A DNA stretch of 64,000 bases from Chitinophaga pinensis (GCA_945907065.1 CAMDSC010000001.1:97190-161189); one strand, 5' to 3'; positions 1,642-15,435 are shown, counted from the first letter of the stretch. Notes: generated by a model from the letters alone, not told the origin. Translations and numbers: made by a program.

Positions 1642-3678
1642 GTGATTAAAAATGAACATAAATTAAATATGAAAAAGGGGATACTTTGGTTTTTAGCTAT
1701 CATTGGCATTATAGCGGCGGGGTTATATTATTGGTTTTATCTAACGCCTGATAAAAATATAAGCGCATTTTATTTAATTCCAAAAAATGCCATGTATGTG
1801 ATAGAAACTACAACGCCCATTGAAAGCTGGAAACGGCTGTCGAAAAGTGATGTCTGGAAATTTTTAAAGAAGCAGGAGTATTTTGGAGAAATAGGGCACA
1901 ATGCCGATTTTTTAGATTCATTGATTAATGATAATTCCACCTTGTTCAGTTTGTTTGGTAATCGGGATTTGCTTATTTCAGCCCATAAAACAAAGGTTAA
2001 AGATTATGATTTTTTGTTTTTAATAAATCTTAAAAAAGGTTCAAAAATCGGATTTGTAGAGGAAACGTTGGAGCAAATACTAAAATCATCAGGACTTAAA
2101 GTCGAAACCAAAGAGTTTAAAAATAAGAGCATTTTGAGTGCTTACAATCGAGCCACCAAGGAAACACTTTACTTTTCAATTGTTCAAAATTATTTATTGT
2201 GTTCTTATACCAACCAACTTATTGAAGGTTCGATAATGGAGGTAGAAGAACCACAGTTGGGCCGGGATGAGAATTTTTTAAACATCTATAAAGAAACCGC
2301 CGAAGATGGATTGTGCAAGTTGTATATCAATTACAAATACCTCAATGATTTTATGCAATGCTACAGCGACCAGCCCAATCCGATGATTAGCGACCTTAGC
2401 AAAACAATGTATTACAGCGGGCTGAAATTAGAAATAGGAGATGATTTTGCAGGATTGGAAGGCTATACCAGTATTAACGATTCGTTGGAATCATACCTTC
2501 AAGCCCTAATGCTTTCAGGCAAAGGTGATATAAAAGCGCATGAAATATTACCAGCCCGAACGGCTATTTATCATTCATTGGGTTTTGAAAGTGGTGTAGA
2601 ATTTTATAAAAATCTGGTAGGGGTGCTGCAAAATGATGAAAGAACTTGGAATGAATTTGAGGCTAACAAAAATAAAATTGAACGATTACTGAAAATTAAC
2701 TTAGAAAGGGATATGCTCAGTTGGGTTGGTGACGAGGTAGCTTATGTTGAAAATGAACCTTCAAAATACACCGAACATTTAGACGATATAATGGTGGTGA
2801 TGAAAGCCAATAGTATTAATTATGCCAAGGAACGCTTGGATTTTATTGCTGATCAGGTAAAGAAGCGTTCACCGGCCAAGTTTAAAAAAGTAGATTATAA
2901 AGATTATACCATTAAATTTTTGGACATCAAAGGTGTGTTTAAAATGTTTTTTGGAAAACTGTTTTCAAAGCTTGAAAAACCATACTACACTGTCGTTGGC
3001 GATTATGTAGTTTTTAGTAATAACCCAAGAACTATCATCAGTTTAATCGAAGATTATGAAACAGGAAACACCTTGGGCAAGGATAAAGTGTTTCAGGATT
3101 TTCTAGATAATTTTAGCAATGAGTCTACTGTGTTTTCTTACATTTCATCCAATCGGGCGTTTCCATTATTTGTTAAAAAATTGGATGCCACAAGCAAAGC
3201 TGGAGTGGCCAAAAACGAAATTTATTTCAGGTCGTTTTCTGACATCGGATTTCAGTTGACAGAAAGGGAAGATAAATTTTTTACCAAAGTGCGTTTGAAT
3301 TTTAATGAATACAAACCGGATACTTTGGGTTCGGACATGGATAGTGCGGCAATGGCCGAAGAAGATGCCTCGATGGTGCTGGATTCGTTGGATGATATTC
3401 AGCGATTTTTGATGGCCAAGTTTGAGCATAATGTAATTCGAGATTATTATGCCAATAGTGATAATTTAAGATTTGAAGCTGAAACCAAGCGTGGAGATTT
3501 ACATGGCCGCTATCGCGAATTTTATGAAACAGGTGAGTTGAAAATTTATGGTCGTTATCGCAAAGGCGAGAAACGTGGTGTTTGGCATTATTACAATAAA
3601 GACGGAACCTTACAACGGAAGGAACGATTTGGAATAATAGGAAAAATGATAGGGAAGTTGGAAGATGAACTTGAATAA
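1642..3678 (+). CDS. Membrane-anchored hypothetical protein with C-terminal MORN-variant (YwqK-type) repeats
   Basis: 678-aa ORF with an N-terminal TM helix (GILWFLAIIGIIAAGLYYWFYL). The C-terminus GRYREFYETGELKIYGRYRKGEKRGVWHYYNKDGTL matches the MORN_2 repeat pattern. The start may instead be ATG 1669. Confidence 0.6.
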   Translation: MIKNEHKLNMKKGILWFLAIIGIIAAGLYYWFYLTPDKNISAFYLIPKNAMYVIETTTPIESWKRLSKSDVWKFLKKQEYFGEIGHNADFLDSLINDNSTLFSLFGNRDLLISAHKTKVKDYDFLFLINLKKGSKIGFVEETLEQILKSSGLKVETKEFKNKSILSAYNRATKETLYFSIVQNYLLCSYTNQLIEGSIMEVEEPQLGRDENFLNIYKETAEDGLCKLYINYKYLNDFMQCYSDQPNPMISDLSKTMYYSGLKLEIGDDFAGLEGYTSINDSLESYLQALMLSGKGDIKAHEILPARTAIYHSLGFESGVEFYKNLVGVLQNDERTWNEFEANKNKIERLLKINLERDMLSWVGDEVAYVENEPSKYTEHLDDIMVVMKANSINYAKERLDFIADQVKKRSPAKFKKVDYKDYTIKFLDIKGVFKMFFGKLFSKLEKPYYTVVGDYVVFSNNPRTIISLIEDYETGNTLGKDKVFQDFLDNFSNESTVFSYISSNRAFPLFVKKLDATSKAGVAKNEIYFRSFSDIGFQLTEREDKFFTKVRLNFNEYKPDTLGSDMDSAAMAEEDASMVLDSLDDIQRFLMAKFEHNVIRDYYANSDNLRFEAETKRGDLHGRYREFYETGELKIYGRYRKGEKRGVWHYYNKDGTLQRKERFGIIGKMIGKLEDELE

Positions 3679-3696
3679 ACCTCAGGTTTATTTTTT
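3675..3696 (+). terminator. Rho-independent terminator between convergent genes
   Basis: ATAAACC-TCA-GGTTTAT followed by TTTTT. It overlaps both stop codons (TAA 3676-3678 on +, TAA 3688-3690 on -). Confidence 0.55.
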
Positions 3697-4875
3697 AGAC
3701 TTTACAGCATCTTCAAATACCGATTGAAGTATCGGTATATATCTACGATAATCAAATTGGGCTTGGGCAACTTGCCTCCCTTTTTGACCAATAGAATTAA
3801 AGGTATCGTAGTTTTTGTAACGGTTTATAATGGCATTTTTTAGTTCTTCTGTATTATCAGGTTCAATAAGGTAGCTATTTACATTATGCTCTAAGTAGTT
3901 TTCAATATCACCTACACGGGTGCAAATAGTTGGAATACCAGTTGCTAAATATTCGCCCAACTTAGTTGGAAACCCAAAATGAGAGTAACTGTGATTGGTT
4001 CGGTTCATCACCAACAAGTCACATTTATAAAGCCATTGCGGAACTTGCTCGTAGGTAATTTGGCCTGATTTTTCAACCTGTCCGTTCAACTTATTTTTTC
4101 TTAGTTCCAGATTTATTTCTCGCTTGTGAGGGTTAAAACCAATCAATTTAAGTTTTAAATCAGGAACATATTCTATGGCATTTTTAAAGCTTTTAATAAT
4201 TCCATAAACGCCGTCTTTTGAGCCAAAGGAACCCAAATAACCAACTGTATAGGATTTTGAATTATTTGAAACTTCTTTAAAACGATTAAAATCTACAATA
4301 ATAGGAATCAAAGTTATTTTGGAAGCAGGCAAATATTGACTGTAATAATCTTTTAGCTTTTCGGAAATAACAATTAAATGGCTGCAAACATATTTAAAAA
4401 TATAAGCATCCAATCGGTCGGCATAGCTAATTATTTTTGGTAAAATATTTTTAGTAGGTACACTTTCATCTAACTCTGTTTTTTCTAGTATTAACGGAAT
4501 CCGCAGGAGTTTAGCTAAAATGTAAATATGACCAAAGAATAGTAATCGCGGGCTGTATAAAAAAATAACGTCAAAGTGTTTTCGTTTTTTTACAAGTAAT
4601 ATTGAAGAGCAAAAAACAGCTTTTGTATACGCTAAAAATCGAATTATTAAATAGGGGCTTCTTAAAACTGAACCACTTAAATAATTGAAATAGATGCCAT
4701 CAAAAAAACCTTTATTTTTTTTATTAATTTTATTGTAATTGAAAATAGTAGAACTTAAAAAAAACAGAAAAACCTGATTGCCGTTTTCTTTTAGTCCATT
4801 GGCTAATGCTCGTAGCCTAGAATTGGCAGCATTTCCTTCCTGAAAATCAATATTTGAAAACCATGCAATTCTCAA
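3688..4875 (-). CDS. Glycosyltransferase family 4 (GT-B fold)
   Basis: 395 aa. The C-terminal half has the E(x7)E-type region FGFPTKLGEYLATGIPTICTRVGDIENYL typical of GT4. It is the last gene of the minus-strand polysaccharide operon. Confidence 0.8.
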   Translation of the reverse strand: MRIAWFSNIDFQEGNAANSRLRALANGLKENGNQVFLFFLSSTIFNYNKINKKNKGFFDGIYFNYLSGSVLRSPYLIIRFLAYTKAVFCSSILLVKKRKHFDVIFLYSPRLLFFGHIYILAKLLRIPLILEKTELDESVPTKNILPKIISYADRLDAYIFKYVCSHLIVISEKLKDYYSQYLPASKITLIPIIVDFNRFKEVSNNSKSYTVGYLGSFGSKDGVYGIIKSFKNAIEYVPDLKLKLIGFNPHKREINLELRKNKLNGQVEKSGQITYEQVPQWLYKCDLLVMNRTNHSYSHFGFPTKLGEYLATGIPTICTRVGDIENYLEHNVNSYLIEPDNTEELKNAIINRYKNYDTFNSIGQKGRQVAQAQFDYRRYIPILQSVFEDAVKSKK

Positions 4876-4876
4876 C

Positions 4877-5905
4877 TTAAATTTTATTCAGATCTCTTAA
4901 TTCGTAGATACGTTCAATAATATCAACTACTTTCAATCCTTCCAGAGCATTGGTATCAATCCGACTTTTACCATTAAGTGTGTCAATCACATTTTGAATT
5001 ACATAATGATGATTGGCGGCACTTCCTTTAAATGGCCCGTAATCATTGGGCGGATTAGTTTCGGGCAATTCAGGCAAAATGTAATCTTTTATATGACAAT
5101 ATTCCACTTCGTTTAGGTATTGGCCGCCAAGCTTGATACTGCCTTTGGAACCCACTGCTGTAATGCTGCTTTCCATATTGGTGTCCCAGCAGGAGGTTGA
5201 AAAATTAATACATCCCATTCCACCGTTTACAAATTCAAAATTTACAACCCCCGTGTCTTCGAACTCGGTTAATTGCTTATGAGTAGCATTTTTAAAGGTG
5301 GCATGAATGTTTTTTATATCACCAAATATCCAATACATAATATCAACAAAATGCGAAAATTGGGTGAACAAAGTTCCGCCATCCATTTTTAACGTTCCTT
5401 TCCAATCACCGGGTTTGTAGTAGCGTTCGTCACGGTTCCAATAGCAATTTACCTGAACCATAATTATTTCACCTAATGATTTATTATCGTAAACTTCTTT
5501 TAACCACTTTGATGGTGGACTGTAGCGATTTTGCTTAACAACAAATACATTTTTTGATTGTTGTAACGATTTAAAAATAACCCTTTCACAATCCGCTTTA
5601 GTTAAACCCATTGGTTTTTCAATAACCACATGCTTGCCATGTTCCAAAGCAAAAAGTGCAATTTCACAATGAAGTCCATTGGGAGCTGCTATATTTATTA
5701 CATCCACATCTGGTTCATTCATAATCATTTCTTTATAATCGGTATAAAAATGTGGATTAAGATTTAATTCATGAAGCTTTGATTCACGAGACGGCAAAAT
5801 GTCGCAACACGCTATAATTTCAGATTCGGGATGCTCGTGTGCAATTTTGGAATGGCGTAAACCAATATGACCCAAACCAACTACAGCAAATTTAATTTTC
5901 TTCAT
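4877..5905 (-). CDS. Gfo/Idh/MocA-family NAD-dependent sugar oxidoreductase (WbpB-like nucleotide-sugar dehydrogenase candidate)
   Basis: 342 aa with an N-terminal Rossmann motif KFAVVGLGHIGLRH and an EKP motif (VVIEKPMGL). Only 1 nt separates it from the downstream GT4 gene. Confidence 0.8.
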   Translation of the reverse strand: MKKIKFAVVGLGHIGLRHSKIAHEHPESEIIACCDILPSRESKLHELNLNPHFYTDYKEMIMNEPDVDVINIAAPNGLHCEIALFALEHGKHVVIEKPMGLTKADCERVIFKSLQQSKNVFVVKQNRYSPPSKWLKEVYDNKSLGEIIMVQVNCYWNRDERYYKPGDWKGTLKMDGGTLFTQFSHFVDIMYWIFGDIKNIHATFKNATHKQLTEFEDTGVVNFEFVNGGMGCINFSTSCWDTNMESSITAVGSKGSIKLGGQYLNEVEYCHIKDYILPELPETNPPNDYGPFKGSAANHHYVIQNVIDTLNGKSRIDTNALEGLKVVDIIERIYELRDLNKI

Positions 5906-6176
5906 TTGATATTTCAGTTCGTTTAAAAATGTAATACTTTAAAATAATGTAGGTACCCGTTAATAATATAAGCACATAAGCTAGATAAATATAGCCTTCA
6001 TATCCTTGTTTTATACAAATAAACATGCCCAAATTTATTATAACCTGAACAATGGTATATAAAAATGAAACCATTAGGTGAGGCAATTTAGTGGCATGCA
6101 CAAGATCCTGAAAAAGATGCATACGGTGAGCTTGAAAAATATTTTGACCTTTCATTAATCGATAAAAAATAGTTAC
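5892..6176 (-). pseudogene. 3' fragment of a WecA/MraY-family (GT4-type) polyprenyl-phosphate sugar-phosphate transferase gene, truncated by IS21
   Basis: The frame is open right up to the IS end at 6177 (VTIFYRLMKGQNIFQAHRMHLFQDLV...). The R-x-x-x-G-x-x-x-F-x-x-x-R-x-H-[LI]-H/F motif followed by two TM helices is the usual C-terminus of this family. About 250 N-terminal residues are missing. Confidence 0.6.
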
Positions 6177-6184
6177 TGGAAAAT

Positions 6185-6322
6185 CCGCTCAAAATGACCC
6201 CTCTTGTTCGGTCTAAATTGACCCCCACTGAAAATGGATGGTTGAATTGAGATTTTCGGTCAAAACTGACCCCCTCCATTCGGTCAAAACTGACCCCCCA
6301 TTTTCGGTTTAAATTGACCCCC
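6185..6322. repeat. Left-end multiple terminal repeats of the IS21 element
   Basis: Five copies of a 19-bp motif TCGGTYWAAAYTGACCCCC at 6185, 6208, 6256, 6280 and 6304. These are probable transposase binding sites, as in IS21 L1-L3. Confidence 0.8.
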
Positions 6323-6407
6323 TGATTTTTCAAAAAATCGAAATTAATACAAAAAATTTGATCCAAAACTGATTGGTTTTCATGCATTGTAATTTTTCTT
6401 GCAATGT

Positions 6408-7991
6408 ATGGCAAACAAACCAATCGACATGAACAAATTAAAACAAATTATTCAACTTAAACAGCAAGGCCATGGTTCGAAGCGCATCAGCTCAATCAGT
6501 GGCGTATCCCGGAATGTAGTAAAGCATTATCTCAAACGACTTGCTGAACTAAATATTCACACGGTGGATTTATTAAAGTTAAATGCAGAGGATCTGCAAC
6601 AATTATTTCAACCCTTTAAACACAAGCAGCTGCCAGATCCAGCCAGACACCTGAGGCTTGAAATCTTATTACCTTCTTTGGATAAGCAACTGCGCAAGCG
6701 TGGTATGACGCTTGAAAAGGTTTATTCTACCTATATTCAAAAAGACCCAATGGGTTATAGCCGAACACAGTTCTACAAATATGTTAGAGAATACCGGCAA
6801 TGCATGACAGGCATTAGTATGCATATTGACCACAAGCCGGGTGATAAGATGTATGTAGATTATACAGGAGAGAAAATGTCAATTATAGATCCCGAAACAG
6901 GCGAAGAAACAAAAGTAGAGGTGTTTGTAGCCATTTTGGGCTTTAGCCAACTGACCTATGTAGAGGCGTCAATGAATCAGAGTCTTTACGGCTTTGTTGA
7001 GTGTTGCAAAAATGCGTTGGAATACTTTGGAGGCACCCCTGCGCTTGTTGTACCAGATAATCTTAAGTCAGCCATAACCCAGAGCAGCAAGTATGAAGCG
7101 GTAATTAATGAAGTCTTTGCCGGTTTTGCGGAGCATTACAACACCAACGTATTGCCTGCACGTCCATACAAACCCAAAGACAAATCTTTGGTAGAGGGTG
7201 CAGTAAAACTTGTTTATCAGAGAGTATTTACGGAAACGGATCAGAAAGTATTCTTTACTCTAGAACAGCTTAATAAGGCAATAAAAGTAGCATTGAACGA
7301 ACATAACAATGCCCCTTTGCGTAAAGCCGAAAGCAGAAGAGAAGTTTTTGAAAATGATGAAAAATCAGTTTTAACACCTCTTCCTATCTTACCCTATTCG
7401 CCCAGTTATGTTAAGCAGTATAAAGTTACTAAAATGGGACATATACCACTTTATGAGGATAAGAAATATTATTCCGTTCCCTATCACTTGATTGGCAAAC
7501 GCGTAAAAGTCACCTATAACGCAACATGGGTCAGAATATATTATACTGACAAGGTAGTAGCAGAACACCAAAGGTGCTACACAAGGGCAACATACATTAC
7601 AAACAAAGAACATCTTGCCTCGAACCATCGCTTTATTACGGAGTGGAATCCTGAATTCTTTATAACTAAGGGTAATGAATTAGATATTGATGTCGGTGTT
7701 TTTCTAGAAAAGCTGATGCAAAGTAAAGGACATCCAGAACAAGGCTATAAGGCTTGTAGCGGCATACTAAACCTGGGGCGAAGGGTTGGAAAAGAAAGGA
7801 TTAAAAACGCCTGCTCTAAGGCTTATAATTTAGGTATATTTACTTATCACATTGTAGAGGAACTACTCAAAAAAGGTATTGAAAAAGATGACCCACATGA
7901 GGACCTGACCATCAGAGCAACACCCAGCCATAAAAATGTAAGAGGAAAGGCTTATTACACTAAATCAGAAACAAATTTAAACAACAAATAA
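6408..7991 (+). CDS. istA: IS21-family transposase IstA
   Basis: About 527 aa from ATG 6408 (the track start 6399 is TTG). It has an N-terminal HTH (GSKRISSISGVSRNVVKHYLKR) and a central DDE integrase-like region. It lies immediately upstream of istB, the classic IS21 layout. Confidence 0.9.
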   Translation: MANKPIDMNKLKQIIQLKQQGHGSKRISSISGVSRNVVKHYLKRLAELNIHTVDLLKLNAEDLQQLFQPFKHKQLPDPARHLRLEILLPSLDKQLRKRGMTLEKVYSTYIQKDPMGYSRTQFYKYVREYRQCMTGISMHIDHKPGDKMYVDYTGEKMSIIDPETGEETKVEVFVAILGFSQLTYVEASMNQSLYGFVECCKNALEYFGGTPALVVPDNLKSAITQSSKYEAVINEVFAGFAEHYNTNVLPARPYKPKDKSLVEGAVKLVYQRVFTETDQKVFFTLEQLNKAIKVALNEHNNAPLRKAESRREVFENDEKSVLTPLPILPYSPSYVKQYKVTKMGHIPLYEDKKYYSVPYHLIGKRVKVTYNATWVRIYYTDKVVAEHQRCYTRATYITNKEHLASNHRFITEWNPEFFITKGNELDIDVGVFLEKLMQSKGHPEQGYKACSGILNLGRRVGKERIKNACSKAYNLGIFTYHIVEELLKKGIEKDDPHEDLTIRATPSHKNVRGKAYYTKSETNLNNK

Positions 7992-7992
7992 A

Positions 7993-8727
7993 ATGAACGA
8001 ACAAACACTAGAAAAAATGAGCAGTATGCGCCTTTATGGTATGCAAAGAAGCTTCCGGCAAGTCGTTGACACGTCACGATTAAATGAATTAACAGCCGAT
8101 GAACTCGTTAGTCAATTGGTAGAAAGTGAATGGGATGACAGACATAATAGGGCTGTTGACCGAAGTCTTAAAAATGCAAGGTTCCGCTACAAGGCATCCA
8201 TTGAAATGATTGATTACTCCATCGACAGGGGCTTAGATCCAAATTTGATAAACAGGTTGGCAGAATGCACCTATCTGGATAATCACCAAAGTCTGATTAT
8301 TACAGGAAGCACAGGAACAGGCAAGAGCTTTATTGCTTCAGCTTTAGGCAACCAAGCCTGCTTAAAGGGCTATAAAGTTCTTTATGCTAACACAACCCGT
8401 CTGCTAAGTCAATTGAAACTCGCAAAGGCGGATGGTTCAAGTTTACAAGAACTAGCCAAAATTGAAAAACAGGATTTGCTAATATTAGACGATTTTGGAA
8501 TACAGCCTTTTGATGCTGCTGGTCGAATGATATTAATGGATATCATTGAAGACAGACATAGTAAGCGGTCCACAATAATTGCAGGTCAGATTCCAATAAG
8601 CGAATGGTATGATATCATTGGAGAAGGAACCTTAGCTGATGCTATTCTTGACCGTATCGTACATGAGGCTCATATGATCGAGTTAAAAGGTGAATCACTT
8701 CGCAGAAAAAAGAAACTTGATTTATAA
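7993..8727 (+). CDS. istB: IS21-family helper ATPase IstB
   Basis: 244 aa with Walker A GSTGTGKS and Walker B LLILDDFG, the IstB/DnaC-like AAA+ pattern. Confidence 0.9.
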   Translation: MNEQTLEKMSSMRLYGMQRSFRQVVDTSRLNELTADELVSQLVESEWDDRHNRAVDRSLKNARFRYKASIEMIDYSIDRGLDPNLINRLAECTYLDNHQSLIITGSTGTGKSFIASALGNQACLKGYKVLYANTTRLLSQLKLAKADGSSLQELAKIEKQDLLILDDFGIQPFDAAGRMILMDIIEDRHSKRSTIIAGQIPISEWYDIIGEGTLADAILDRIVHEAHMIELKGESLRRKKKLDL

Positions 8728-8793
8728 TTTTTTTTAAACTTTTTTTGAATAAAAATCAATCAGTTTTTGGACAACTTTTTTTGTATTAAATCA

Positions 8794-8844
8794 GGGGGTC
8801 AGTTTTGACCGAATAAAGGGGGGCTGATTGGGTGAATTTTTCCA
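8794..8844. repeat. Right-end terminal repeats of the IS21 element
   Basis: GGGGGTCAGTTTTGACCGA (8794-8812) is the exact reverse complement of the left-end motif. A degenerate terminal copy lies at 8818-8834 and the element ends ...TCCA at 8844. Confidence 0.8.
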
Positions 8845-8904
8845 TTTAGCTATGTCCATCGCTAATTTCCATACCGGCATATCTTCAAAACTTATATATT
8901 TCAT
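8845..8904 (-). pseudogene. First 20 codons of a four-helix-bundle (23S rRNA IVS protein family) gene, cut by the IS21 right end
   Basis: The minus strand reads ATG(8904) MKYISFEDMPVWKLAMDIAK and then runs into the IS terminus. F-E-D-x-x-VW-K-x-A is the characteristic N-terminus of this family (compare MAKEYSFEKLTVWQDS at 10310). Confidence 0.6.
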
Positions 8905-8929
8905 TATTCCCTTAACCTTAATTTCAGCC

Positions 8930-9877
8930 TCAACCTTTCCTATACCAATCTATGGTTTTCTTTAAGGCCTCGGTAATGTCTAATTGCTCTTTATAGGCCA
9001 ATAATTTTTTAGCTTTTGTTATATCAGCTAAGCTAAAAAAAATGTCACCTTTTCGGTTCGGGCCATGAGTTGCATCGCTTGTAGCTCCGCTAATTGTTTT
9101 TATCATTTGCCACAAATCGTTTAAACTGGTGGTGTTGCCACAGGCTACATTTACTACTTCGTGTTTTACGAATTCTAAGGGTAGGGTTAAACCGTTGATA
9201 TTGATTTGTACAACATTTTCAACCGGTGTAAAATCACGGGTAATGGTCCCATCACCGTTTATTAAAGGACTTTCATTATTAAGGGCAGCTTTTACAAATA
9301 ATGGAATAACGGCAGCATAAGGTCCTTCAGGGTCTTGTTTGGGGCCAAATACATTAAAATACCGAAATCCGATAAGGGTCATATCGTAGTTTCTGGAATA
9401 GGCTTCGGCATATAACTCATTAGCCATTTTGGTAGCGGCATAAGGTGATAAAACTTTTCCTACCCTGTTTTCTATTTTGGGTGAATCCGTTAAATCCCCG
9501 TAGACTGATGAAGAAGAAGCATAAACAATTCGTTTGATATTATTTTTCCTTGCTGCTTCCAGTATATTTAAAAATCCGTTAACATTCACATCATGCGAAG
9601 TTAAAGGGTCGTTTATACTTCTTGGCACCGAACCCAATGCCGCTTGATGACTAATGGCATCCATTCCTTCACATGCTTTATTGCAATCTTCCGCATTTCG
9701 GATATCTCCTTCCATAAACTGAAATTTAGGGTTGGAGTTAAATTCTGTAAGATTACTCAAATGTCCTGTGGCCAAGTTATCAAGAACCCGAACCAATGAA
9801 ATTCTTTCGTCTTGAAGTAACGCAGCTGTAAGGTTAGAGCCAATAAATCCTGCACCGCCGGTTATTAGTATTTTCAT
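8930..9877 (-). CDS. NAD-dependent nucleotide-sugar epimerase (WbpP/TviC-like UDP-GlcNAc(A) 4-epimerase candidate)
   Basis: 315 aa with MKILITGGAGFIGSNL and an SDR YxxxK motif (SPYAATK). It is paired with a TviB/WbpO-like dehydrogenase upstream. Confidence 0.85.
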   Translation of the reverse strand: MKILITGGAGFIGSNLTAALLQDERISLVRVLDNLATGHLSNLTEFNSNPKFQFMEGDIRNAEDCNKACEGMDAISHQAALGSVPRSINDPLTSHDVNVNGFLNILEAARKNNIKRIVYASSSSVYGDLTDSPKIENRVGKVLSPYAATKMANELYAEAYSRNYDMTLIGFRYFNVFGPKQDPEGPYAAVIPLFVKAALNNESPLINGDGTITRDFTPVENVVQININGLTLPLEFVKHEVVNVACGNTTSLNDLWQMIKTISGATSDATHGPNRKGDIFFSLADITKAKKLLAYKEQLDITEALKKTIDWYRKG

Positions 9878-9881
9878 TTTA

Positions 9882-9957
9882 GGGTTGAGGGTTTTATGGT
9901 TTAGAAGTTTATGGTTTAGAAGTTTATGGTTTAGAAGTTTAGGGTTTAGAGGTGTTT
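9882..9957. repeat. Tandem array of a 15-bp unit GGTTTAGAAGTTTAT (5 units, the outer ones degenerate)
   Basis: Units at 9882, 9898, 9913, 9928 and 9943. The array fills the gap between the epimerase start (9877) and the 4HB gene and runs into its last codons and stop (9939-9941). Confidence 0.9.
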
Positions 9958-10310
9958 AAGCTATTTCTTAAACCGGAAAGTTTTGAGGCAATGCTATCTA
10001 TTAGTTCTCTAATGTTAGCAAGAGTAGCATCGGTAATGTAATTCAAATCTTTAGAAATAATTAGTTGATTTAATAATTCCATCATACTACTGTATGCAAT
10101 TTTATAAAAGTTCGCCTGATCTCGTTTTGTTGTCCTTCCTGAACCTTCTGCAATATTTGAACTAATGGAAATAGAAGCTCGTCTCATTTGATTTGTAAGC
10201 CCAAATACTTCATCAGAAGGAAAAAGTTTTGTTAATTTATAAATCAAGGTTACTAATTTTCTTGAATCTTGCCAAACAGTGAGTTTTTCAAATGAATATT
10301 CTTTTGCCAT
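9939..10310 (-). CDS. Four-helix-bundle protein (TIGR02436 / 23S rRNA intervening-sequence protein family, Avd-like fold)
   Basis: 123 aa. Shows FEKLTVWQDSRKL...QMRRASISISSNIAEGSGRTTKRDQANFYKIAYSSMMEL, the family's signature pattern. Confidence 0.8.
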   Translation of the reverse strand: MAKEYSFEKLTVWQDSRKLVTLIYKLTKLFPSDEVFGLTNQMRRASISISSNIAEGSGRTTKRDQANFYKIAYSSMMELLNQLIISKDLNYITDATLANIRELIDSIASKLSGLRNSLNTSKP

Positions 10311-10325
10311 TGGACCGTTAATTGC

Positions 10326-10462
10326 TTAGGGTTAATGAGTTTAGGGGTTTAGAAGTTTAAGGTTTATCGGTTTTAGAGAGGAGGGAATAAATTAATTTAA
10401 AATTTTGAGTTGAATTATAAACACTAAACCCAATAAACACTAAACCAGATAAACTCTAAACC
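10326..10462. repeat. Inverted pair of arrays of the 15-bp unit, forming a potential long hairpin
   Basis: Direct-orientation units lie at 10326-10380 (for example GGTTTAGAAGTTTAA at 10346-10360). After an AT-rich spacer of about 36 nt come three reverse-complement units ATAAACACTAAACC(C) at 10417, 10432 and 10447. Confidence 0.85.
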
Positions 10463-10465
10463 AAA

Positions 10466-11746
10466 TCAAAGACTCCCGTCAACTAAACTTCTATCCAGTA
10501 ATCCCTTTACATCAAAAATTACATGGTTTGTATTAAGATACTCAAGAATATTTAAATATTTAAACTCATTATGCCCTACTGCCATAATAATAGCATCAAA
10601 TTTACTATGAGCAGGCAATTCTTTGCGGGTGATTAAACCATATTCATGTTTTACTTCTGTCGGCTCTGCCCATGGATCAACAACGGTTAAGTTAACATGG
10701 TAGGTATTTAATTCATTAATGATATCGATAACTTTTGTATTGCGAACATCAGGGCAATTTTCTTTAAAAGTAAATCCTAAAACCAATATTTTAGCATCTT
10801 TTACTTTGATGTCCTTTTTAATCATTAACTTAATAGTTTCATTGGCAACATAGGCTCCCATGCTATCGTTTAATCTTCTTCCGGCCAAAATAATTTCAGG
10901 GTGATACCCAACCTCTTGCGCTTTTTGGGCTAAGTAGTAAGGGTCTACACCTATACAATGTCCACCAACCAAACCCGGTTTAAATTTTAGGAAATTCCAT
11001 TTGGTTCCTGCAGCTTCCAACACGTCATTGGTATTAATTCCCATTAGACTAAAAATTTTTGAAAGTTCATTTACAAACGCGATATTGATATCGCGTTGTG
11101 AATTTTCAATAACCTTGGCGGCTTCAGCTACCTTAATAGATGTGGCTTTGTGAGTTCCAGCAACTATAATAGTGCGGTATAAGTCATCTACTTTTTCTGC
11201 AATTTCGGGGGTTGAACCCGATGTTACTTTTAATATTTTAGTAACAGTATGCTCTTTATCTCCCGGATTAATTCTTTCAGGGGAATATCCTGCGAAGAAA
11301 TCGATGTTAAATTTTAATCCAGAAATTCTTTCTAATACCGGAATGCACTCATCTTCAGTTACCCCTGGATATACAGTTGATTCATATATAACAATATCTC
11401 CTTTTTTTAAAACTTTACCCACTGTTTCACTTGCTTTATACAGGGGAGTTAAGTCAGGGCGATTATTTCTATCAGTTGGTGTGGGAACGGTAACGATGTA
11501 ATAGTTACAATCTTTAATTTCATCCAATCGGGTTGTACATTTAAAACTGCCTATTTCACTTTTATTGGAGAGAACCTCTTTTAAATCTTCATTTTCTATT
11601 TCTAATGTTCTGTCAAACCCACTATTTAATTCATCCACACGTTTTTGATTGATATCAAACCCAACTGTGTGAAATTTTTTCCCAAACTCAATAGCTAAAG
11701 GTAAGCCAACGTAACCTAAGCCTATAATTCCAATTGTTTTGTTCAT
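10466..11746 (-). CDS. Nucleotide-sugar 6-dehydrogenase (TviB/WbpO/CapL-like UDP-GlcNAc/GalNAc dehydrogenase)
   Basis: 426 aa with [14 protein letters not shown] and the catalytic-Cys region [12 protein letters not shown]. Length and motifs match the UDP-glucose/GDP-mannose dehydrogenase family. Confidence 0.9.
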
Positions 11747-12126
11747 TAATTATTTAAAACTATTTTTTGTTCTTGAAAAAGTGATTTTTTAGATTTTGAC
11801 TTTTCATCAGCAGCTTTAATTGTTTTTCCTGATATAAGCATGCTTCCAATATAAGGTAAAAAAAGAGTGCCATTCTCATTTATAGTAATTCCTGTGTTGG
11901 TACTAAATTCATTAACTAATGCCGTATTATTGGAATTGAATTTAAATCCTAATATATCTCCTGCCTGAATTACATGGTCTACAGTATTTTCATGTTTTGC
12001 TAATTCAATATTGGAATATTTGCTGTTAGAGTTGTCTTTCTCTTGGAAATAAATCAATCTTTTGCCACATGAAGAAAATACAATGGCAAATACTATGATG
12101 ACTGATAGTCGAATGGTTTTAGTCAT
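11746..12126 (-). CDS. Short Wza-like polysaccharide export lipoprotein (Poly_export N-domain only, probably truncated)
   Basis: 126 aa with lipobox [16 protein letters not shown]...[21 protein letters not shown] matches the Poly_export motif, but no SLBB domain follows. It overlaps the dehydrogenase start by 1 nt. Confidence 0.55.
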
Positions 12127-12129
12127 TTT

Positions 12130-12630
12130 TTATTTTTTAACGGGCAAAGGTAACACTTTATTTATTGGAACATCAGCCACTAAAGAACAGCCTAGAGATT
12201 CAATTATGATTTTTACTTTATTTTTTCCAATTTTAATAATCTTTCCAATTTGATTCGTCATTGGGCCACTTTGGATTTTAACAGAACTGTTTATTTCAGG
12301 GGTAAATTCCTGAACTTCAATATTTTCATAATTTCCCAAAAAATGCTTTATAATTTCTATTTCTTGGTCTCTTATTACCGCCGGTTGACCAAGCCAATAT
12401 ACAAAGTTTAATACACCTTTTGTTTCTCTCACTTTTGGCTTTTCATCCTCTACAATATGAGCAAAAACATACGACCTGAATAAAGGCTCATCTACCATTT
12501 TTTTTCGGTCGCTCCATTGCTTCATCGTTTTATGAAGCGGTAAGTAGTTTTCTATATTTTGATCAGTTAGCAAGGATGCAACCTTCTTTTCGTTTCGCGA
12601 CAGAACATAAATAGCAAACCATTTTTTCAT
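12130..12630 (-). CDS. UpxY-family (NusG-like) transcription antiterminator
   Basis: 166 aa. The NGN-like N-terminus KKWFAIYVLSRNEKKV...PLFRSYVFAH, the KOW-like C-terminus and its position at the head of a polysaccharide operon match Bacteroides UpxY. Confidence 0.8.
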   Translation of the reverse strand: MKKWFAIYVLSRNEKKVASLLTDQNIENYLPLHKTMKQWSDRKKMVDEPLFRSYVFAHIVEDEKPKVRETKGVLNFVYWLGQPAVIRDQEIEIIKHFLGNYENIEVQEFTPEINSSVKIQSGPMTNQIGKIIKIGKNKVKIIIESLGCSLVADVPINKVLPLPVKK

Positions 12631-12641
12631 TATAAAAGGTA

Positions 12642-12666
12642 AAAGTTTAAAGTAGAAAGTTTAAAG
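12642..12666. repeat. Left arm of a 25-nt inverted repeat (AAAGTTT AAAGTAG AAAGTTT AAAG)
   Basis: Its reverse complement matches 13055-13079 at 24 of 25 positions. It is built from heptad words. Confidence 0.9.
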
Positions 12667-12676
12667 AGATCACTTC

Positions 12677-13036
12677 TCATTTTTTGACAGAAGTTTTTGA
12701 ATAAATACTTCCTAAAATATTCATTAGTTCAAAGGATTCTGACTTAAGTGGTAGCCAATCTGAATTATCATCAGTTATTTCTATAACCAGTCTAATCCAA
12801 TAATTAGATTCACGCATTTCCTTTAATGAGATGCCAACTTTATTAGCAAAGTCTGGTCTCGATACAGCACTTTGTGCCTCTTCATAATTTGCTCCTGAAG
12901 AAGTAGAAGATTTCGTTAATTGGTAATTTATAACATCATATTCTTTACCTTTAGGGAGCTTTCGAATCAACGATATAACATTTACTGCAAACTGAAATAA
13001 CCTTTTTTGTAAATCGTTTTTATCAAAATCTAACAT
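12677..13036 (-). CDS. Four-helix-bundle protein (TIGR02436 / 23S rRNA IVS protein family), divergent second copy
   Basis: 119 aa. Shows YQLTKSSTSSGANYEEAQSAVSRPDFANKVGISLKEMRESNYWIRLV, the family signature (QL.rS.tSigANy.EA...S..DF..K..I..KE..Et.YWl). Confidence 0.8.
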   Translation of the reverse strand: MLDFDKNDLQKRLFQFAVNVISLIRKLPKGKEYDVINYQLTKSSTSSGANYEEAQSAVSRPDFANKVGISLKEMRESNYWIRLVIEITDDNSDWLPLKSESFELMNILGSIYSKTSVKK

Positions 13037-13054
13037 GAAATTATCCTTTTCTTA

Positions 13055-13079
13055 CTTTAAACTTTTTACTTTAAACTTT
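13055..13079. repeat. Right arm of the 25-nt inverted repeat
   Basis: CTTTAAACTTTTTACTTTAAACTTT has one mismatch to the reverse complement of 12642-12666. Confidence 0.9.
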
Positions 13080-13137
13080 ATCCATTTCTTCCAAAGCTTC
13101 GCCACCTCAGTCACAGAGTACTAAGTGCTATTTTTTA

Positions 13138-13161
13138 TGTAAAAAAGCCTTTTTAGGCTTT
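13138..13161 (-). terminator. Weak rho-independent terminator overlapping the regulator stop codon
   Basis: The minus strand reads AAAGCC-TAAAA-GGCTTT followed by TTT. The 6-bp stem is short. Confidence 0.35.
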
Positions 13162-13680
13162 ACTCCAGAGAAGTAAAGAAGGCTCCAATTTATTACTATC
13201 TACAAGTGATTCAACCTCACTTAGTAATTCAATTTTTAGTTTTTTATTAATGGTTTTTTCTACCTTTTGAACCAATTCTTCAAGGTAGTCTTTATCTACA
13301 TTTCCTGAAATTTTAAGCTCGATAGTATCACTGTTTAGCCCACGGGCCAAATTCCCTACCAACCAAACATGGTCAGGTTCACCAAGTTTTGAAACAATGG
13401 AATCAATAATTCTATCAATACCAACATACTTTCTGATAATTGAATTTATTTCAGGGTAAAGTGGATGCTTGGTATTGGCTTTAAAAATTTTTTTGTTGCT
13501 TTCAGAATAGGAATTTAAAAGACCTGATTCTTCAAATTTGTTAAGTTCCAGTCTAATAGAATTGGTGCTTTCTCCAAATTCAGCTTCAAGATTTCTGAGA
13601 TATGCTGTATTGCTGGAGTTCAAAAAGAACTTAAGCAAGAGTTTGATTTTCGTTTTAGAAGATACCAAAGAATCTAGCAT
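13153..13680 (-). CDS. Winged-helix (ArsR-like) DNA-binding protein with an unassigned C-terminal domain
   Basis: 175 aa. The N-terminus KTKIKLLLKFFLNSSNTAYLRNLEAEFGESTNSIRLELNKFEESGLL looks like a wHTH. The C-terminal half is unassigned. Confidence 0.45.
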   Translation of the reverse strand: MLDSLVSSKTKIKLLLKFFLNSSNTAYLRNLEAEFGESTNSIRLELNKFEESGLLNSYSESNKKIFKANTKHPLYPEINSIIRKYVGIDRIIDSIVSKLGEPDHVWLVGNLARGLNSDTIELKISGNVDKDYLEELVQKVEKTINKKLKIELLSEVESLVDSNKLEPSLLLWSKA

Positions 13681-13794
13681 AGTTAAAATTGAGTAGCAAA
13701 ACTACTCATTATCGATTTAAAACCCAAATGTAATAGATTATTTTAAGGTTATTGTTTTGTCAGATTATTACAAAGGTTTAATCAAAACAGAATT

Positions 13795-15435
13795 CTACCT
13801 AACTCCGCCCATCATCTTTTTTAATTGTGGTGAAATAAGTATGAGTATTACACCTGAAATTAATGCTATATAACCAATGCTTTCATAACCACTCGTGTAT
13901 TGCATTAATTTTTGATAATTGGTTGGGTTTTCAATTGAATTATCACCTTTTGCTAAGGTAGCACCGATTAATCCGGCTCCGTATTGTCCATAAGCACTTG
14001 CCAAAAACCATGTTCCCATCATCACTCCATGCAATCGGGTTGGAGATAATTTGGTAACCATAGATAAACCGATAGGAGAGAGGCAAAGTTCACCAAGGGT
14101 TACTATTAAATAAGCAAAAATAAATGTCCATATTGGCGTTATTCCGTTTGGATTAGCAAAAAATTTACTGGAGTAAAATATGAGGAACCCTAGGCCAAGA
14201 AATATAAATCCATATCCAAACTTTACAATCATGTTAGGCTCTTTATTTTTCTTATTTAAATACAACCAAAATAAACCAATAATTGGAGCTAAAAGTACGA
14301 CCCATAAGGCATTGATGGAATTGTTAACTGAAGTCATATTCAATCCATTGCTTTCCACGTTTCCTACGGCAAAAAAGTTTAACGAACCTCCACCTTGTTC
14401 AAAGAACGACCAAAAAACAACTGAGAATAATATTAAAATACCGGCAACTGTTAATTTGCGGCCTTCTTCCTTAGAAGCAGTCCTTATCTGGTATACAATA
14501 TAACCGATGGTGAAAACGGCAGCTAATAAAAATATTAAATCGGTTAAACTCAAAGTAATGGAACCAAGATTAATATCCATTGGATAATATACAAAAAGAA
14601 AGAAAAGGGGTATTAGAAGCAAGGTGGCTGCATGTATCAAGACTCCGCGATTAATACCTGCCACTTTTTTATTTAGTTTTTCGGGATAAGGGACTAAACC
14701 AATTGGGCCCAATGTTTTTTGAGTGAATACAAATAATCCTAAACCAATGAGCATACAAACTCCAGCTAATGCAAAACCTAAAGACCAGCTAATAGATGTG
14801 CCAATATAGGCAATGATTAAACCACTTAATAATGCCCCAATGTTAATACCTGAATAAAATAGTGAAAAACCTGCATCCCTTCTGGGGTCACCTTCCTTAT
14901 ATAAGCTGCCAACCATTGTGGAAATATTGGGTTTGAAAAATCCGTTGCCTACTATAAGGATACTTACTCCGGCATAAAAGGCAAAACTTCCGGGAATAGC
15001 CATTAAAAAAGTTCCTATGGCCATTAATATTCCGCCCCAAAAAATGGAACGGCGAAATCCAAATAATTTATCAGCAAACAAACCGCCAATAAATGCCATG
15101 GCATAAATAAATGCCTGAATGGTTCCGTAGCGTTTATTGCTTATTGCTTCAGCGTCGTCTCTATATTTTTGTTCTGAGGTTCTGATGTAATACTGAGGAT
15201 GTTTTTCATTCAATATTTCAGCATTACTTACTTCAAATTCTTTAACAATTTTGGCCTTTTCGGTGGCATTTACTGAATGATAATCCACCGATAATATTAA
15301 ATGTGAAATATAAAGTCCCAGTAAGGCTCGCATACCATAAAAGGTAAATCGTTCCCACATTTCTATTAAAAATAAATACCAAAGTTGTTTTGGGTATTTG
15401 CCTTTAAAATTTTGAATTTCTTCTACTGTTAGCAT
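13795..15435 (-). CDS. POT/PTR2-family proton-dependent di/tripeptide transporter
   Basis: 546 aa, polytopic. Shows PTR2 signatures EMWERFTFYGMRALL and GGLFADKLFGFRRSI. Confidence 0.9.
   Translation of the reverse strand: MLTVEEIQNFKGKYPKQLWYLFLIEMWERFTFYGMRALLGLYISHLILSVDYHSVNATEKAKIVKEFEVSNAEILNEKHPQYYIRTSEQKYRDDAEAISNKRYGTIQAFIYAMAFIGGLFADKLFGFRRSIFWGGILMAIGTFLMAIPGSFAFYAGVSILIVGNGFFKPNISTMVGSLYKEGDPRRDAGFSLFYSGINIGALLSGLIIAYIGTSISWSLGFALAGVCMLIGLGLFVFTQKTLGPIGLVPYPEKLNKKVAGINRGVLIHAATLLLIPLFFLFVYYPMDINLGSITLSLTDLIFLLAAVFTIGYIVYQIRTASKEEGRKLTVAGILILFSVVFWSFFEQGGGSLNFFAVGNVESNGLNMTSVNNSINALWVVLLAPIIGLFWLYLNKKNKEPNMIVKFGYGFIFLGLGFLIFYSSKFFANPNGITPIWTFIFAYLIVTLGELCLSPIGLSMVTKLSPTRLHGVMMGTWFLASAYGQYGAGLIGATLAKGDNSIENPTNYQKLMQYTSGYESIGYIALISGVILILISPQLKKMMGGVR

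Follow-up and report, generated by a model that had tools for sequence, protein, structure and literature searches.

On the minus strand of a 64,000-nucleotide stretch of Chitinophaga pinensis DNA (GCA_945907065.1 CAMDSC010000001.1:97190-161189, referred to below as the window), three small genes of the four-helix-bundle (4HB) family lie among the genes of a polysaccharide operon. The family is large and spans many phyla, and it is known solely from the open reading frames (ORFs) of intervening sequences (IVSs) in rRNA and as the Avd partner of diversity-generating retroelements (DGRs). What are such genes doing between biosynthesis genes, and did each of them arrive alone or together with the repeats around it? 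We consider it probable that the three loci are copies of an IVS-like cassette without a transposase, inserted in the polysaccharide operon, with arms that pair on the RNA and with an essentially selfish character. Such a cassette would measure about 0.43-0.6 kb and comprise a 5' arm, a 4HB ORF (S23p/Avd-like, TIGR02436) and a 3' arm, the arms being complementary arrays of 7-8-nt units or of 14-16-nt double units. We refer to the copies as cassettes A, B and C, to the truncated remainder of the third as C', and to the positions that they occupy as slots A, B and C.

Cassettes at gene boundaries of the operon

The initial annotation of the window had placed three co-oriented family members on the minus strand, each next to or between biosynthesis genes, with the last one cut by an IS21-family element. 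ORF calling and hidden Markov model (HMM) searches agreed with it on both counts and gave the minus-strand order 175-aa gene, A, upxY, wza', dehydrogenase, B, epimerase and C'::IS21 (Table 1). ORF A scored 71.5 bits with TIGR02436 (cut-off 24) and 49.4 bits with PF05635 (cut-off 33.8), and ORF B exceeded the same curated cut-offs with 119.4 and 124.8 bits, respectively, which places both in the families that had been named for them. Solved relatives are PDB 2RLD for ORF A (E 1.1e-15) and PDB 2GSC (XCC0516) for ORF B (E 7.8e-24), with five chains in each entry. The third member, which reads MKYISFEDMPVWKLAMDIAK from 8904 to 8845, is a 20-aa stump too short for HMM scoring and was assigned to the family via an intact orthologue. 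In L012, a related metagenome contig, a complete PF05635 gene of 127 aa (112.7 bits, E 1.2e-32) comes after the same epimerase, and its first 20 codons are the same base for base as the stump; the match stops at the end of the IS21 element, and the position of the right end of that element was taken from this divergence. The two complete copies are highly divergent, as had been proposed: phmmer barely detects their kinship (E about 0.09), and they are therefore not recent duplicates. No further family member was detected in the 64 kb when the three sequences were compared by phmmer with all six-frame ORF fragments.

For slot A, orthologues of the 175-aa gene were fetched and the region downstream of each was mapped. 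Locus L179, with a UpxY 92% identical to that of the window, proved to be empty: only 76 nt separate the two genes, and the sequence reads ...GAAGAAATGGATAAAAAATGGTTTGCT. The window reads ...GAAGAAATGGATAAA, then the insert GTTTAAAG...TTTTATAATGAAA, then AAATGGTTTGCT; in other words, it consists of the L179 flanks plus 452 bp inserted after ATGGATAAA, and the end of the insert (...TTTTATAATG) gives the present start codon. The N-terminus of UpxY is accordingly MKKW in the window, compared with MDKKW in the empty L179 and MEKKW in L187, which is also empty, as is L182; the gene of L187 starts ATGGAAAAGAAATGG. By this alignment, cassette A sits within codons 2-3 of what was the ancestral upxY gene and brings a new ATG with it. 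The initial annotation had located A in the 5' leader ahead of upxY; the location holds, but the cassette is not merely in the leader, since it was inserted inside the first codons of the gene and its 3' end supplies the present start codon. Orthologues of cassette A likewise have the downstream start codon, ATG or TTG, within or abutting their final arm unit.

The empty sites carry no hairpin, and the arms must therefore have come with the insert; insertion into a pre-existing hairpin at slot A was rejected on the strength of L179, L182 and L187, which are empty and without arms. A further candidate for an empty slot A, L013, was discarded because its apparent gap is a scaffold run of N. L002 lacks a cassette at slot C, its epimerase ending ...AAAGGTTAAG; for slot B, a look-up with the dehydrogenase protein returned the same arrangement only and no empty allele. 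Presence and absence with boundaries at the arms, which the initial annotation had anticipated for related loci, was thus found at slots A and C. Cassette B occupies the gap from the dehydrogenase stop to the epimerase start, and cassette C is found at the epimerase stop. Comparison of these loci showed co-directional insertion of the cassettes at gene boundaries of a UpxY-type polysaccharide operon. Host sequence resembling an arm unit was present at both sites viewed, GGATAAA in upxY at slot A and AAGGTTAAG at the end of the epimerase gene at slot C. This hints at insertion guided by microhomology, two cases being an anecdote.

After insertion, the parts of the unit appear to have fared differently. 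At slot A, the orthologue in L180/L123 is 94% identical at the protein level, yet it contains an in-frame TAG, that in L181/L132 has an internal insertion of about 49 nt, and that in L183 is frameshifted; the arms of L180, L181 and L183 are still complementary (z -2.7, -4.4 and -5.4) despite altered unit sequences. The slot-B orthologue of L002/L004 has lost the region of the conserved GSGR motif through internal deletions, and its arms are shrunken. Among related metagenome contigs, the 3' array of cassette B contains two or three 15-nt units, and several contigs break there. As judged from these alignments, unit number drifts and arm complementarity is kept, and the ORF often decays after insertion.

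The flanking repeats of the window, which had been described as able to form long stems, were confirmed as inverted repeats and arrays. In cassette A, 33-nt arms at 12634-12666 and 13055-13087 are 88% complementary and made of AAAG/CTTT-type 7-nt units. Pairing of the 5' arm runs on into the host-derived ATGGATAAA (13077-13085), a remnant of the ancestral upxY start, and the 3' arm stops 4 nt short of the present upxY ATG (12628-12630). Cassette B does have the flanking arrays that had been reported, with the refinement that there are three of them rather than two. Its 3' array overlaps the last of the ORF's codons and extends as far as the epimerase ATG. The distal array is opposite in sense to the 3' array and pairs with it in the minimum-free-energy (MFE) and centroid folds; as an alternative, the distal and proximal arrays form a duplex with a predicted energy of -34.3 kcal/mol. 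The distal array may therefore pair either with the proximal array, in a local hairpin that precedes the ORF, or with the 3' array, in a stem that encloses it. Since the proximal and 3' arrays repeat each other directly, recombination between them would remove the ORF, with nothing but a hairpin remaining. For the intact cassette C of L012, the duplex of the 5' arm with the CCTCAACC/CCTTAACC array on the 3' side has E -47.2 and z -4.8.

Minus-strand transcripts of both complete cassettes are predicted to fold better than shuffled sequences, as the initial annotation had expected. Cassette A gave -100.2 kcal/mol (z -3.29, 1 of 100 shuffles as good) and cassette B -111.5 kcal/mol (z -3.50, equalled by none of 20 shuffles), and in both predicted folds the ORF is enclosed by a terminal stem of about 30 bp or more.

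Arms, gene context and mobility across the family

The survey of the family covered 160 loci encoding relatives of A or B, taken from species-representative genomes of Bacteroidota, Ignavibacteriota, Verrucomicrobiota, Planctomycetota, Patescibacteria and other phyla. Complementarity was scored as the energy of an RNA duplex formed by the two 100-nt flanks of each gene, upstream and downstream, expressed as z against mononucleotide shuffles, with 135 ORFs from the same loci as controls. Flanks with z<-3 were found for 65/167 family members (39%) and for 1% of the controls, and 28% of the 167 members had z<-4; the median z was -2.4 for the family and -0.05 for the controls (Mann-Whitney p=9.4e-22). 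The strongest cases are all complementary tandem arrays, such as GGCGAAAG/CTTTCGCC, TTGATTTG/CAAATCAA and GTATTTC/GAAATAC, among others, with arms that start 0-36 nt ahead of the ATG and 0-17 nt past the stop codon. A strongly periodic arm flanks 43 of the 167 members, compared with 3 of the 135 controls, the commonest period being 7, followed by 14 and 8. Armed cassettes are present in isolate genomes as well as in metagenome-assembled genomes (MAGs). Upstream flanks are G-rich and C-poor, and downstream flanks show the reverse; a purine-rich 5' arm with a pyrimidine-rich 3' arm reads the same on both strands, so this polarity carries no information on the orientation of the ORF.

Family members mostly point the same way as the gene upstream of them (128 of 134 cases, 96%), and both neighbours are co-oriented in 78%, compared with 63% of control triplets. 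Median spacers of just 59 and 68 nt indicate that the arms essentially occupy the gaps. When 140 neighbouring proteins were assigned by Pfam, they proved diverse: sugar-nucleotide epimerases/dehydratases formed the largest class (14/140), followed by HlyD/TolC efflux components, RmlC, succinate dehydrogenase subunits and ABC transporters. At least two family members occur in 16 of 155 loci of about 7 kb. An earlier survey had found 18 genes of this family within cas operons, for example in the cmr3-cmr2 gap (PMC3936711).

Two loci contain recent duplications of a whole unit. In L165, positions 426-858 match 2534-2966 over 433 bp with 97.7% identity, and in L073, positions 2017-2442 match 3965-4390 over 426 bp with 99.3% identity; in both, identity begins and stops at the arm ends. 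Comparison of L103 with L108 revealed one cassette inverted between the same two neighbours. Arm sequence and protein also travel together: the k-mer Jaccard index of the arms was 0.05 at protein identities of at least 60% and 0.02 below 45% (p about 1e-100), this similarity tracks protein identity even across unrelated gene contexts, and the control comparing upstream with downstream arms was flat. Cassettes of Prolixibacteraceae with common units and a common leader occur in at least three gene contexts. Taken together, these alignments showed that arm, ORF and arm behave as one unit, which is gained, lost, duplicated and inverted between genomes. The proposal that small IVS-like cassettes colonise operon spacers is thereby supported, by the family-wide arms, by the duplication of whole units and by ORF decay of the kind described for the Coxiella IVS (PMC4990558).

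Some of these loci have features of their own. The relatives of cassette A in Prolixibacteraceae (L103-L112) have a conserved leader with a small inverted repeat, TTGGTTTTCTAAGTTATTTTCCGTAACTTATTAGGAAAACT, about 40 nt before the 4HB ATG, and a GGGACTCC/GGAGTCCC pair common to the subclade lies just within their heptamer arrays; some cassettes thus have conserved non-coding parts beyond the arms. In L073, from a Patescibacteria MAG (JAQUPS010000019), a segment of about 4.5 kb (1900-6500) contains four cassettes. Three of the four share 87-99% protein identity and the same GTATTTC/GAAATAC arms, one copy having an in-frame stop; they are interleaved with short genes whose starts resemble type IV pilin signal sequences, and an additional arm-like repeat at about 5087-5125 has no ORF.

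Nature of the element

Under the reading that we favour, the cassettes would be the same kind of element as the ORF-bearing IVSs of 23S rRNA, placed in an mRNA operon. ORF-bearing IVSs in the 23S/16S rRNA genes of Leptospira, Coxiella burnetii and Candidate Phyla Radiation (CPR) bacteria encode proteins of the same family (S23p/PF05635), have terminal complementary sequences forming a long stem around the ORF (predicted for the cassettes), are inserted in the sense direction in a transcribed unit, occur sporadically and show reductive evolution of the ORF (PMC4990558; PMC11270868). The ORF-bearing Coxiella IVS, with a decaying S23p ORF, measures 428 nt and has a 28-bp terminal stem, and its excision by RNase III was shown experimentally (PMC4990558); the duplicated units measure 426-433 bp and cassette A 452 bp. 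The cassettes differ from rRNA IVSs in their location, since they lie between or at the ends of protein-coding genes, in the spacers and at a gene start of an operon and not in an rRNA helix, and in the presence of three divergent copies in one operon. Their arms are tandem arrays of 7-8-nt units, a trait that rRNA IVSs may share. RNase III excision, demonstrated for rRNA IVSs, would extend to the cassettes by analogy, their predicted stems of at least about 30 bp being in principle of sufficient length. An Rfam scan of 8700-13800 (E<=1) matched no rRNA or other family and returned two chance-level matches only.

As we picture it, the cassette has no promoter of its own and would be read through from the host operon. 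Read-through is consistent with the 96% co-orientation of upstream neighbours, with the short spacers and with a terminator-like hairpin directly after the 175-aa gene (AAGCC-TAAAA-GGCTTTTTT). A scan for sigma-70 and terminator consensus sequences gave no information on this point: it found fewer promoter-like sites than in shuffles, and the consensus does not cover promoters of the Bacteroidota type. On the polycistronic RNA, the arms would pair into a stem of at least 30 bp with the ORF looped out, as in the predicted folds. RNase III would cut this stem as it does in rRNA IVSs, and cleavage of this kind would make the insertion tolerable. Operons of rrn and operons with a NusG paralogue of the UpxY type have termination-resistant transcription. 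Termination-resistant units of these kinds (rrn and UpxY/RfaH-type polysaccharide operons) would be permissive for hairpin-forming inserts, and cassette A might in addition interact with UpxY antitermination, as the initial annotation implied. The elements would be essentially selfish, and the pentameric protein would serve their spread or maintenance and not polysaccharide synthesis: a protein that is conserved across phyla and decays after fixation shows the pattern expected of a spread factor. Homing endonuclease genes are likewise conserved and then decay after fixation.

The other known setting of the family is the DGR, in which Avd, with a homologous four-helix-bundle fold, assembles as a pentameric barrel; each of the five protomers contacts a stem-loop RNA that is encoded beside the Avd gene (bioRxiv 10.1101/2023.10.23.563531). 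Copy B matches the PHROG family 'Avd protein of DGR' (E 1.9e-8), but it remains below the Avd-specific cut-offs (NF033474, 17.9 vs 80 bits; PF22296, 21.6 vs 40 bits), and copy A matched neither of these two models. No reverse transcriptase was found by Pfam among the nine largest ORFs in 6.4-13.7 kb, and no pair of template repeat and variable repeat (TR/VR) lies beside the cassettes, where the sole repeats are the arms. Given the scores below cut-off and the lack of reverse transcriptase and TR/VR, the idea that the window copies are components of a DGR was rejected.

Small mobile elements of other kinds share part of the pattern. Miniature inverted-repeat transposable elements (MITEs), such as the Correia elements of Neisseria and the enterobacterial ERIC sequences, are like the cassettes in being small, in lacking a transposase, in having inverted-repeat ends and in inserting into operon spacers. 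MITE hairpins form on mRNA, and Correia elements are cleaved by RNase III. The cassettes have terminal inverted repeats (arms of 30-50 nt) and a small size (units of 430-600 bp), with the 4HB gene as their sole ORF. MITEs, in contrast, contain no ORF, have conserved ends common to many copies and produce defined target duplications, whereas the cassettes contain a conserved ORF and have arms that differ from cassette to cassette and are internally tandem-repetitive. Many near-identical copies, typical of MITEs, were not found: the cassettes of the window are divergent, and such pairs occur only in L165 and L073. Integron cassettes resemble these units as promoterless, single-ORF, co-directional elements that are bounded by imperfect palindromes and transcribed from upstream, several unrelated ones being stackable in one transcription unit. 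Unlike integron cassettes, the 4HB units have no integrase and no attI/attC core sites (no tyrosine recombinase was found among the ORFs of 6-16 kb), they are interspersed among housekeeping operon genes and not arrayed, and they always encode the same protein family. Short tandemly repeated repetitive (STRR) sequences of cyanobacteria are tandem heptanucleotide arrays in operon intergenic regions that can pair into hairpins, and in this they resemble the arms. STRR sequences (mentioned in PMC2670836) have no documented link to 4HB genes in the literature searched and are a lead only. A full-text search that excluded subscription-only papers turned up none that connects the family with repeat arms at its flanks anywhere but in rRNA genes.

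Could the arms belong to the host and not to a mobile element? The arms, with or without the 4HB protein, might be a domesticated cis-regulatory device of the polysaccharide operon that sequesters or exposes the downstream start (upxY, epimerase) or sets segmental mRNA stability, the 4HB protein being an RNA-binding autoregulator. The position of the 3' arm of cassette A 4 nt from the upxY ATG, with orthologue starts in or against the last arm unit, would suit such a role, as would the two attenuator-like alternative pairings of cassette B and the binding by the Avd pentamer of a stem-loop beside its own gene. It would also explain why arms remain complementary in L180, L181 and L183 with a broken ORF, and why cassette A is kept at one site in four species (175-aa protein 75-93% identical to that of the window), dead ORFs included. 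We nevertheless consider this explanation unlikely: L179, with a UpxY 92% identical, manages without the cassette or a substitute structure, the more distant L182 and L187 also lack the cassette, similar cassettes lie in unrelated operons (efflux, succinate dehydrogenase, cas), ORFs decay, and whole units duplicate to new sites. A DNA-level device, in which the arms are recombination sites of an invertible or recombining segment and cause phase variation of the operon, appears more improbable still. It would account for the cassette flipped between L103 and L108 with identical neighbours and for a pairing energy that is strand-symmetric, and cassette A occupies the position at which, we assume, Bacteroides capsule loci carry invertible promoters. 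Against it, A and B are in a single orientation in all of roughly 20 contigs from related metagenome populations, and no site-specific recombinase is encoded nearby, where only istA/istB of IS21 were found; arm sequences differ between cassettes, which leaves no common recombinase site, and the upxY start codon lies outside the arm and would therefore not be moved by an inversion. The plainest explanation, ordinary small accessory genes that happen to stand beside simple intergenic repeats, ORF and repeats being unlinked, is hardly credible. The high divergence of A and B, with no recent copy in this genome, and the AT-richness of the genome (about 34% GC), which makes it prone to simple repeats, speak for it. 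It is contradicted by the complementarity of the flanks (p=9e-22), by their periodicity (43/167 vs 3/135) and by duplication boundaries that coincide with arm ends; moreover, all three slots have arms, and the arm units form no arrays elsewhere in the 64-kb window, in which only scattered single one-mismatch matches occur outside the cassettes.

Several observations weigh against the mobile, IVS-like cassette as well. Recognisable arms within 100 nt were found for roughly half of the family members only. Duplex energies did not differ between sense and antisense; there is thus no G.U signature, and selection or function at the RNA level is not separable from that at the DNA level. Exact-protein look-ups of public assemblies returned no near-identical second copy of A or B, every public contig that carries either of them showing this same locus, so that recent mobility was demonstrated in other genomes and not in this one. 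No mobility enzyme was identified, and no clear target-site duplication was found: the junctions at slot A share at most AAA (3 A residues), and none is evident at the L165 copies. Co-transcription, formation of the stem in vivo and RNase III cleavage are all inferred. The retention of cassette A in four species, even with a dead ORF, makes host co-option of the stem possible. Finally, UpxY makes L179 the nearest relative of the window (92%), whereas the upstream gene points to L180 (93% vs 90%), and the empty site of L179 could thus reflect secondary loss or allele replacement.

A bolder reading, rather doubtful at present, extends the IVS-like cassette to the family as a whole. Free-standing 4HB genes would be the signature of transposase-less mobile cassettes that span phyla, rRNA IVSs being the first of them to be noticed, and the pentamer would be a mobility or maintenance factor that reads heptamers. 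Within the ring, every protomer would recognise a single heptamer of the arm, on RNA or on single-stranded DNA; given that the Avd pentamer grips a stem-loop beside its own gene, a ring reading tandem heptamers is a reasonable guess. Spread could proceed by microhomology-guided template switching from arm units to look-alike targets, or by reverse transcription with a reverse transcriptase acting in trans, in which case the cassettes would be kin or ancestors of the Avd module of DGRs. Transcription units protected by antitermination (rrn, UpxY/RfaH-type) would serve as safe havens.

Surrounding locus and significance

Coordinates of the cassettes, their arms and the surrounding genes are compiled in Table 1.

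Table 1 Features of the cassette-bearing locus (positions in the window).
Feature	Position	Strand	Basis or remark
Gene without Pfam match, 175 aa	13153-13680	minus	ORF calling + Pfam/NCBIfam scan
Cassette A, whole insert, 452 bp (boundary ambiguous by at most 3 A)	12625-13076	minus	filled window vs empty L179
Cassette A, 5' arm, AAAG-type 7-nt units	13045-13087	minus	inverted repeat, tandem repeat 13052-13080, MFE stem
Cassette A ORF, 119-aa 4HB protein	12677-13036	minus	TIGR02436 5.9e-20, PF05635 6.1e-13
Cassette A, 3' arm, CTTTAAAC / CTTTCTA / CTTTTAC units	12634-12668	minus	repeats + MFE stem
upxY, host gene targeted by cassette A	12130-12630	minus	NF033644 131.6 bits (cut-off 100)
wza', truncated export gene, 126 aa	11746-12126	minus	
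TviB-like nucleotide-sugar dehydrogenase, host gene flanking cassette B	10466-11746	minus	
Cassette B, distal 5' array, GGTTTAG-type, 16 nt x 3.1	10417-10469	minus	starts 3 nt past dehydrogenase stop
Cassette B, proximal array, CTAAACC-type, same sense as 3' array	10326-10376	minus	direct + inverted repeats
Cassette B ORF, 123-aa 4HB protein	9939-10310	minus	TIGR02436 7.6e-35, PF05635 2.2e-36
Cassette B, 3' array, CTTCTAAACCATAAA x about 4 (15 nt x 3.9)	9878-9950	minus	
TviC-like epimerase, host gene flanking cassette B	8930-9877	minus	
Cassette C, 5' arm, GGTTGAGG CTGAAATTAAGGTTAAGGG (GGTTGAGG/GGTTAAGG units), includes epimerase stop codon	8909-8935	minus	
Cassette C' ORF stump, opening 20 codons of 127-aa 4HB gene	8845-8904	minus	= L012 2445-2504
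IS21-family element truncating cassette C	6175-8844 (left end approximate)	plus	Pfam rve/Mu-transpos_C_2; IstB_IS21 2.8e-65
istA; istB	6399-7991; 7993-8727		within IS21 element

The 175-aa gene upstream of cassette A, which had been taken for a regulator, has no Pfam or NCBIfam match, but PDC-M05A, a candidate defence model of PADLOC, recognises it (E 1.6e-17); its orthologues adjoin upxY, dehydrogenase or epimerase genes in dozens of Bacteroidota. PADLOC gave no match at E<=0.01 for A, B or the intact orthologue of C. Beside this gene, at 13096-13113 on the minus strand, lies the 18-nt motif TGACTGAGnnGGCGAAGC, which is also found in L179-L183, L187, L215, L225, L228, L230, L240, L242, L252 and L253 (distant Bacteroidota), usually 30-100 nt past the stop codon of the orthologue of the 175-aa gene and in two cases before its start. 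The motif occurs at filled and empty sites alike and therefore does not belong to the cassette; UpxY-type loci could use it as an operator or as a motif of the leader RNA, and it matched no Rfam family.

Further downstream, the stop of the wza-like gene overlaps the start of the dehydrogenase gene. In L003, L005 and L123, Wza measures 242 aa and an 812-aa gene comes next; compared with them, the locus of the window, with 126 aa, is recombined or degenerate. The IS21 element has multiple 24-nt terminal repeats at 6255-6323, with related copies near 8790-8825, and adjoins an 87-aa ORF (5892-6155) resembling a C-terminal fragment of a membrane protein. Its position between the truncated cassette C and this fragment-like ORF indicates that a deletion of the polysaccharide locus appears to accompany the insertion. 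In L012, a RhuM-family gene follows the third cassette, and an epimerase/dehydratase gene and a NeuB gene (3759-5793) are each present as two ORFs (113+212 aa and 110+210 aa); these split genes may be frameshifts, assembly errors or further interruptions.

Armed 4HB cassettes outside rRNA genes are without a published description that the full-text search could find. If the favoured reading is true, annotators would gain a rule for a class of "hypothetical" mini-genes and for the odd repeats around them, and the presence of 4HB genes in cas, capsule, efflux and respiratory operons would be accounted for. It would also draw attention to one origin of RNA processing sites within operons, and of assembly breaks and variable repeat numbers in polysaccharide loci. 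The protein would acquire a concrete and testable activity, the binding of its own periodic arms, and rRNA IVSs would become a special case of a general element, the origin and spread of which would then be open to test.

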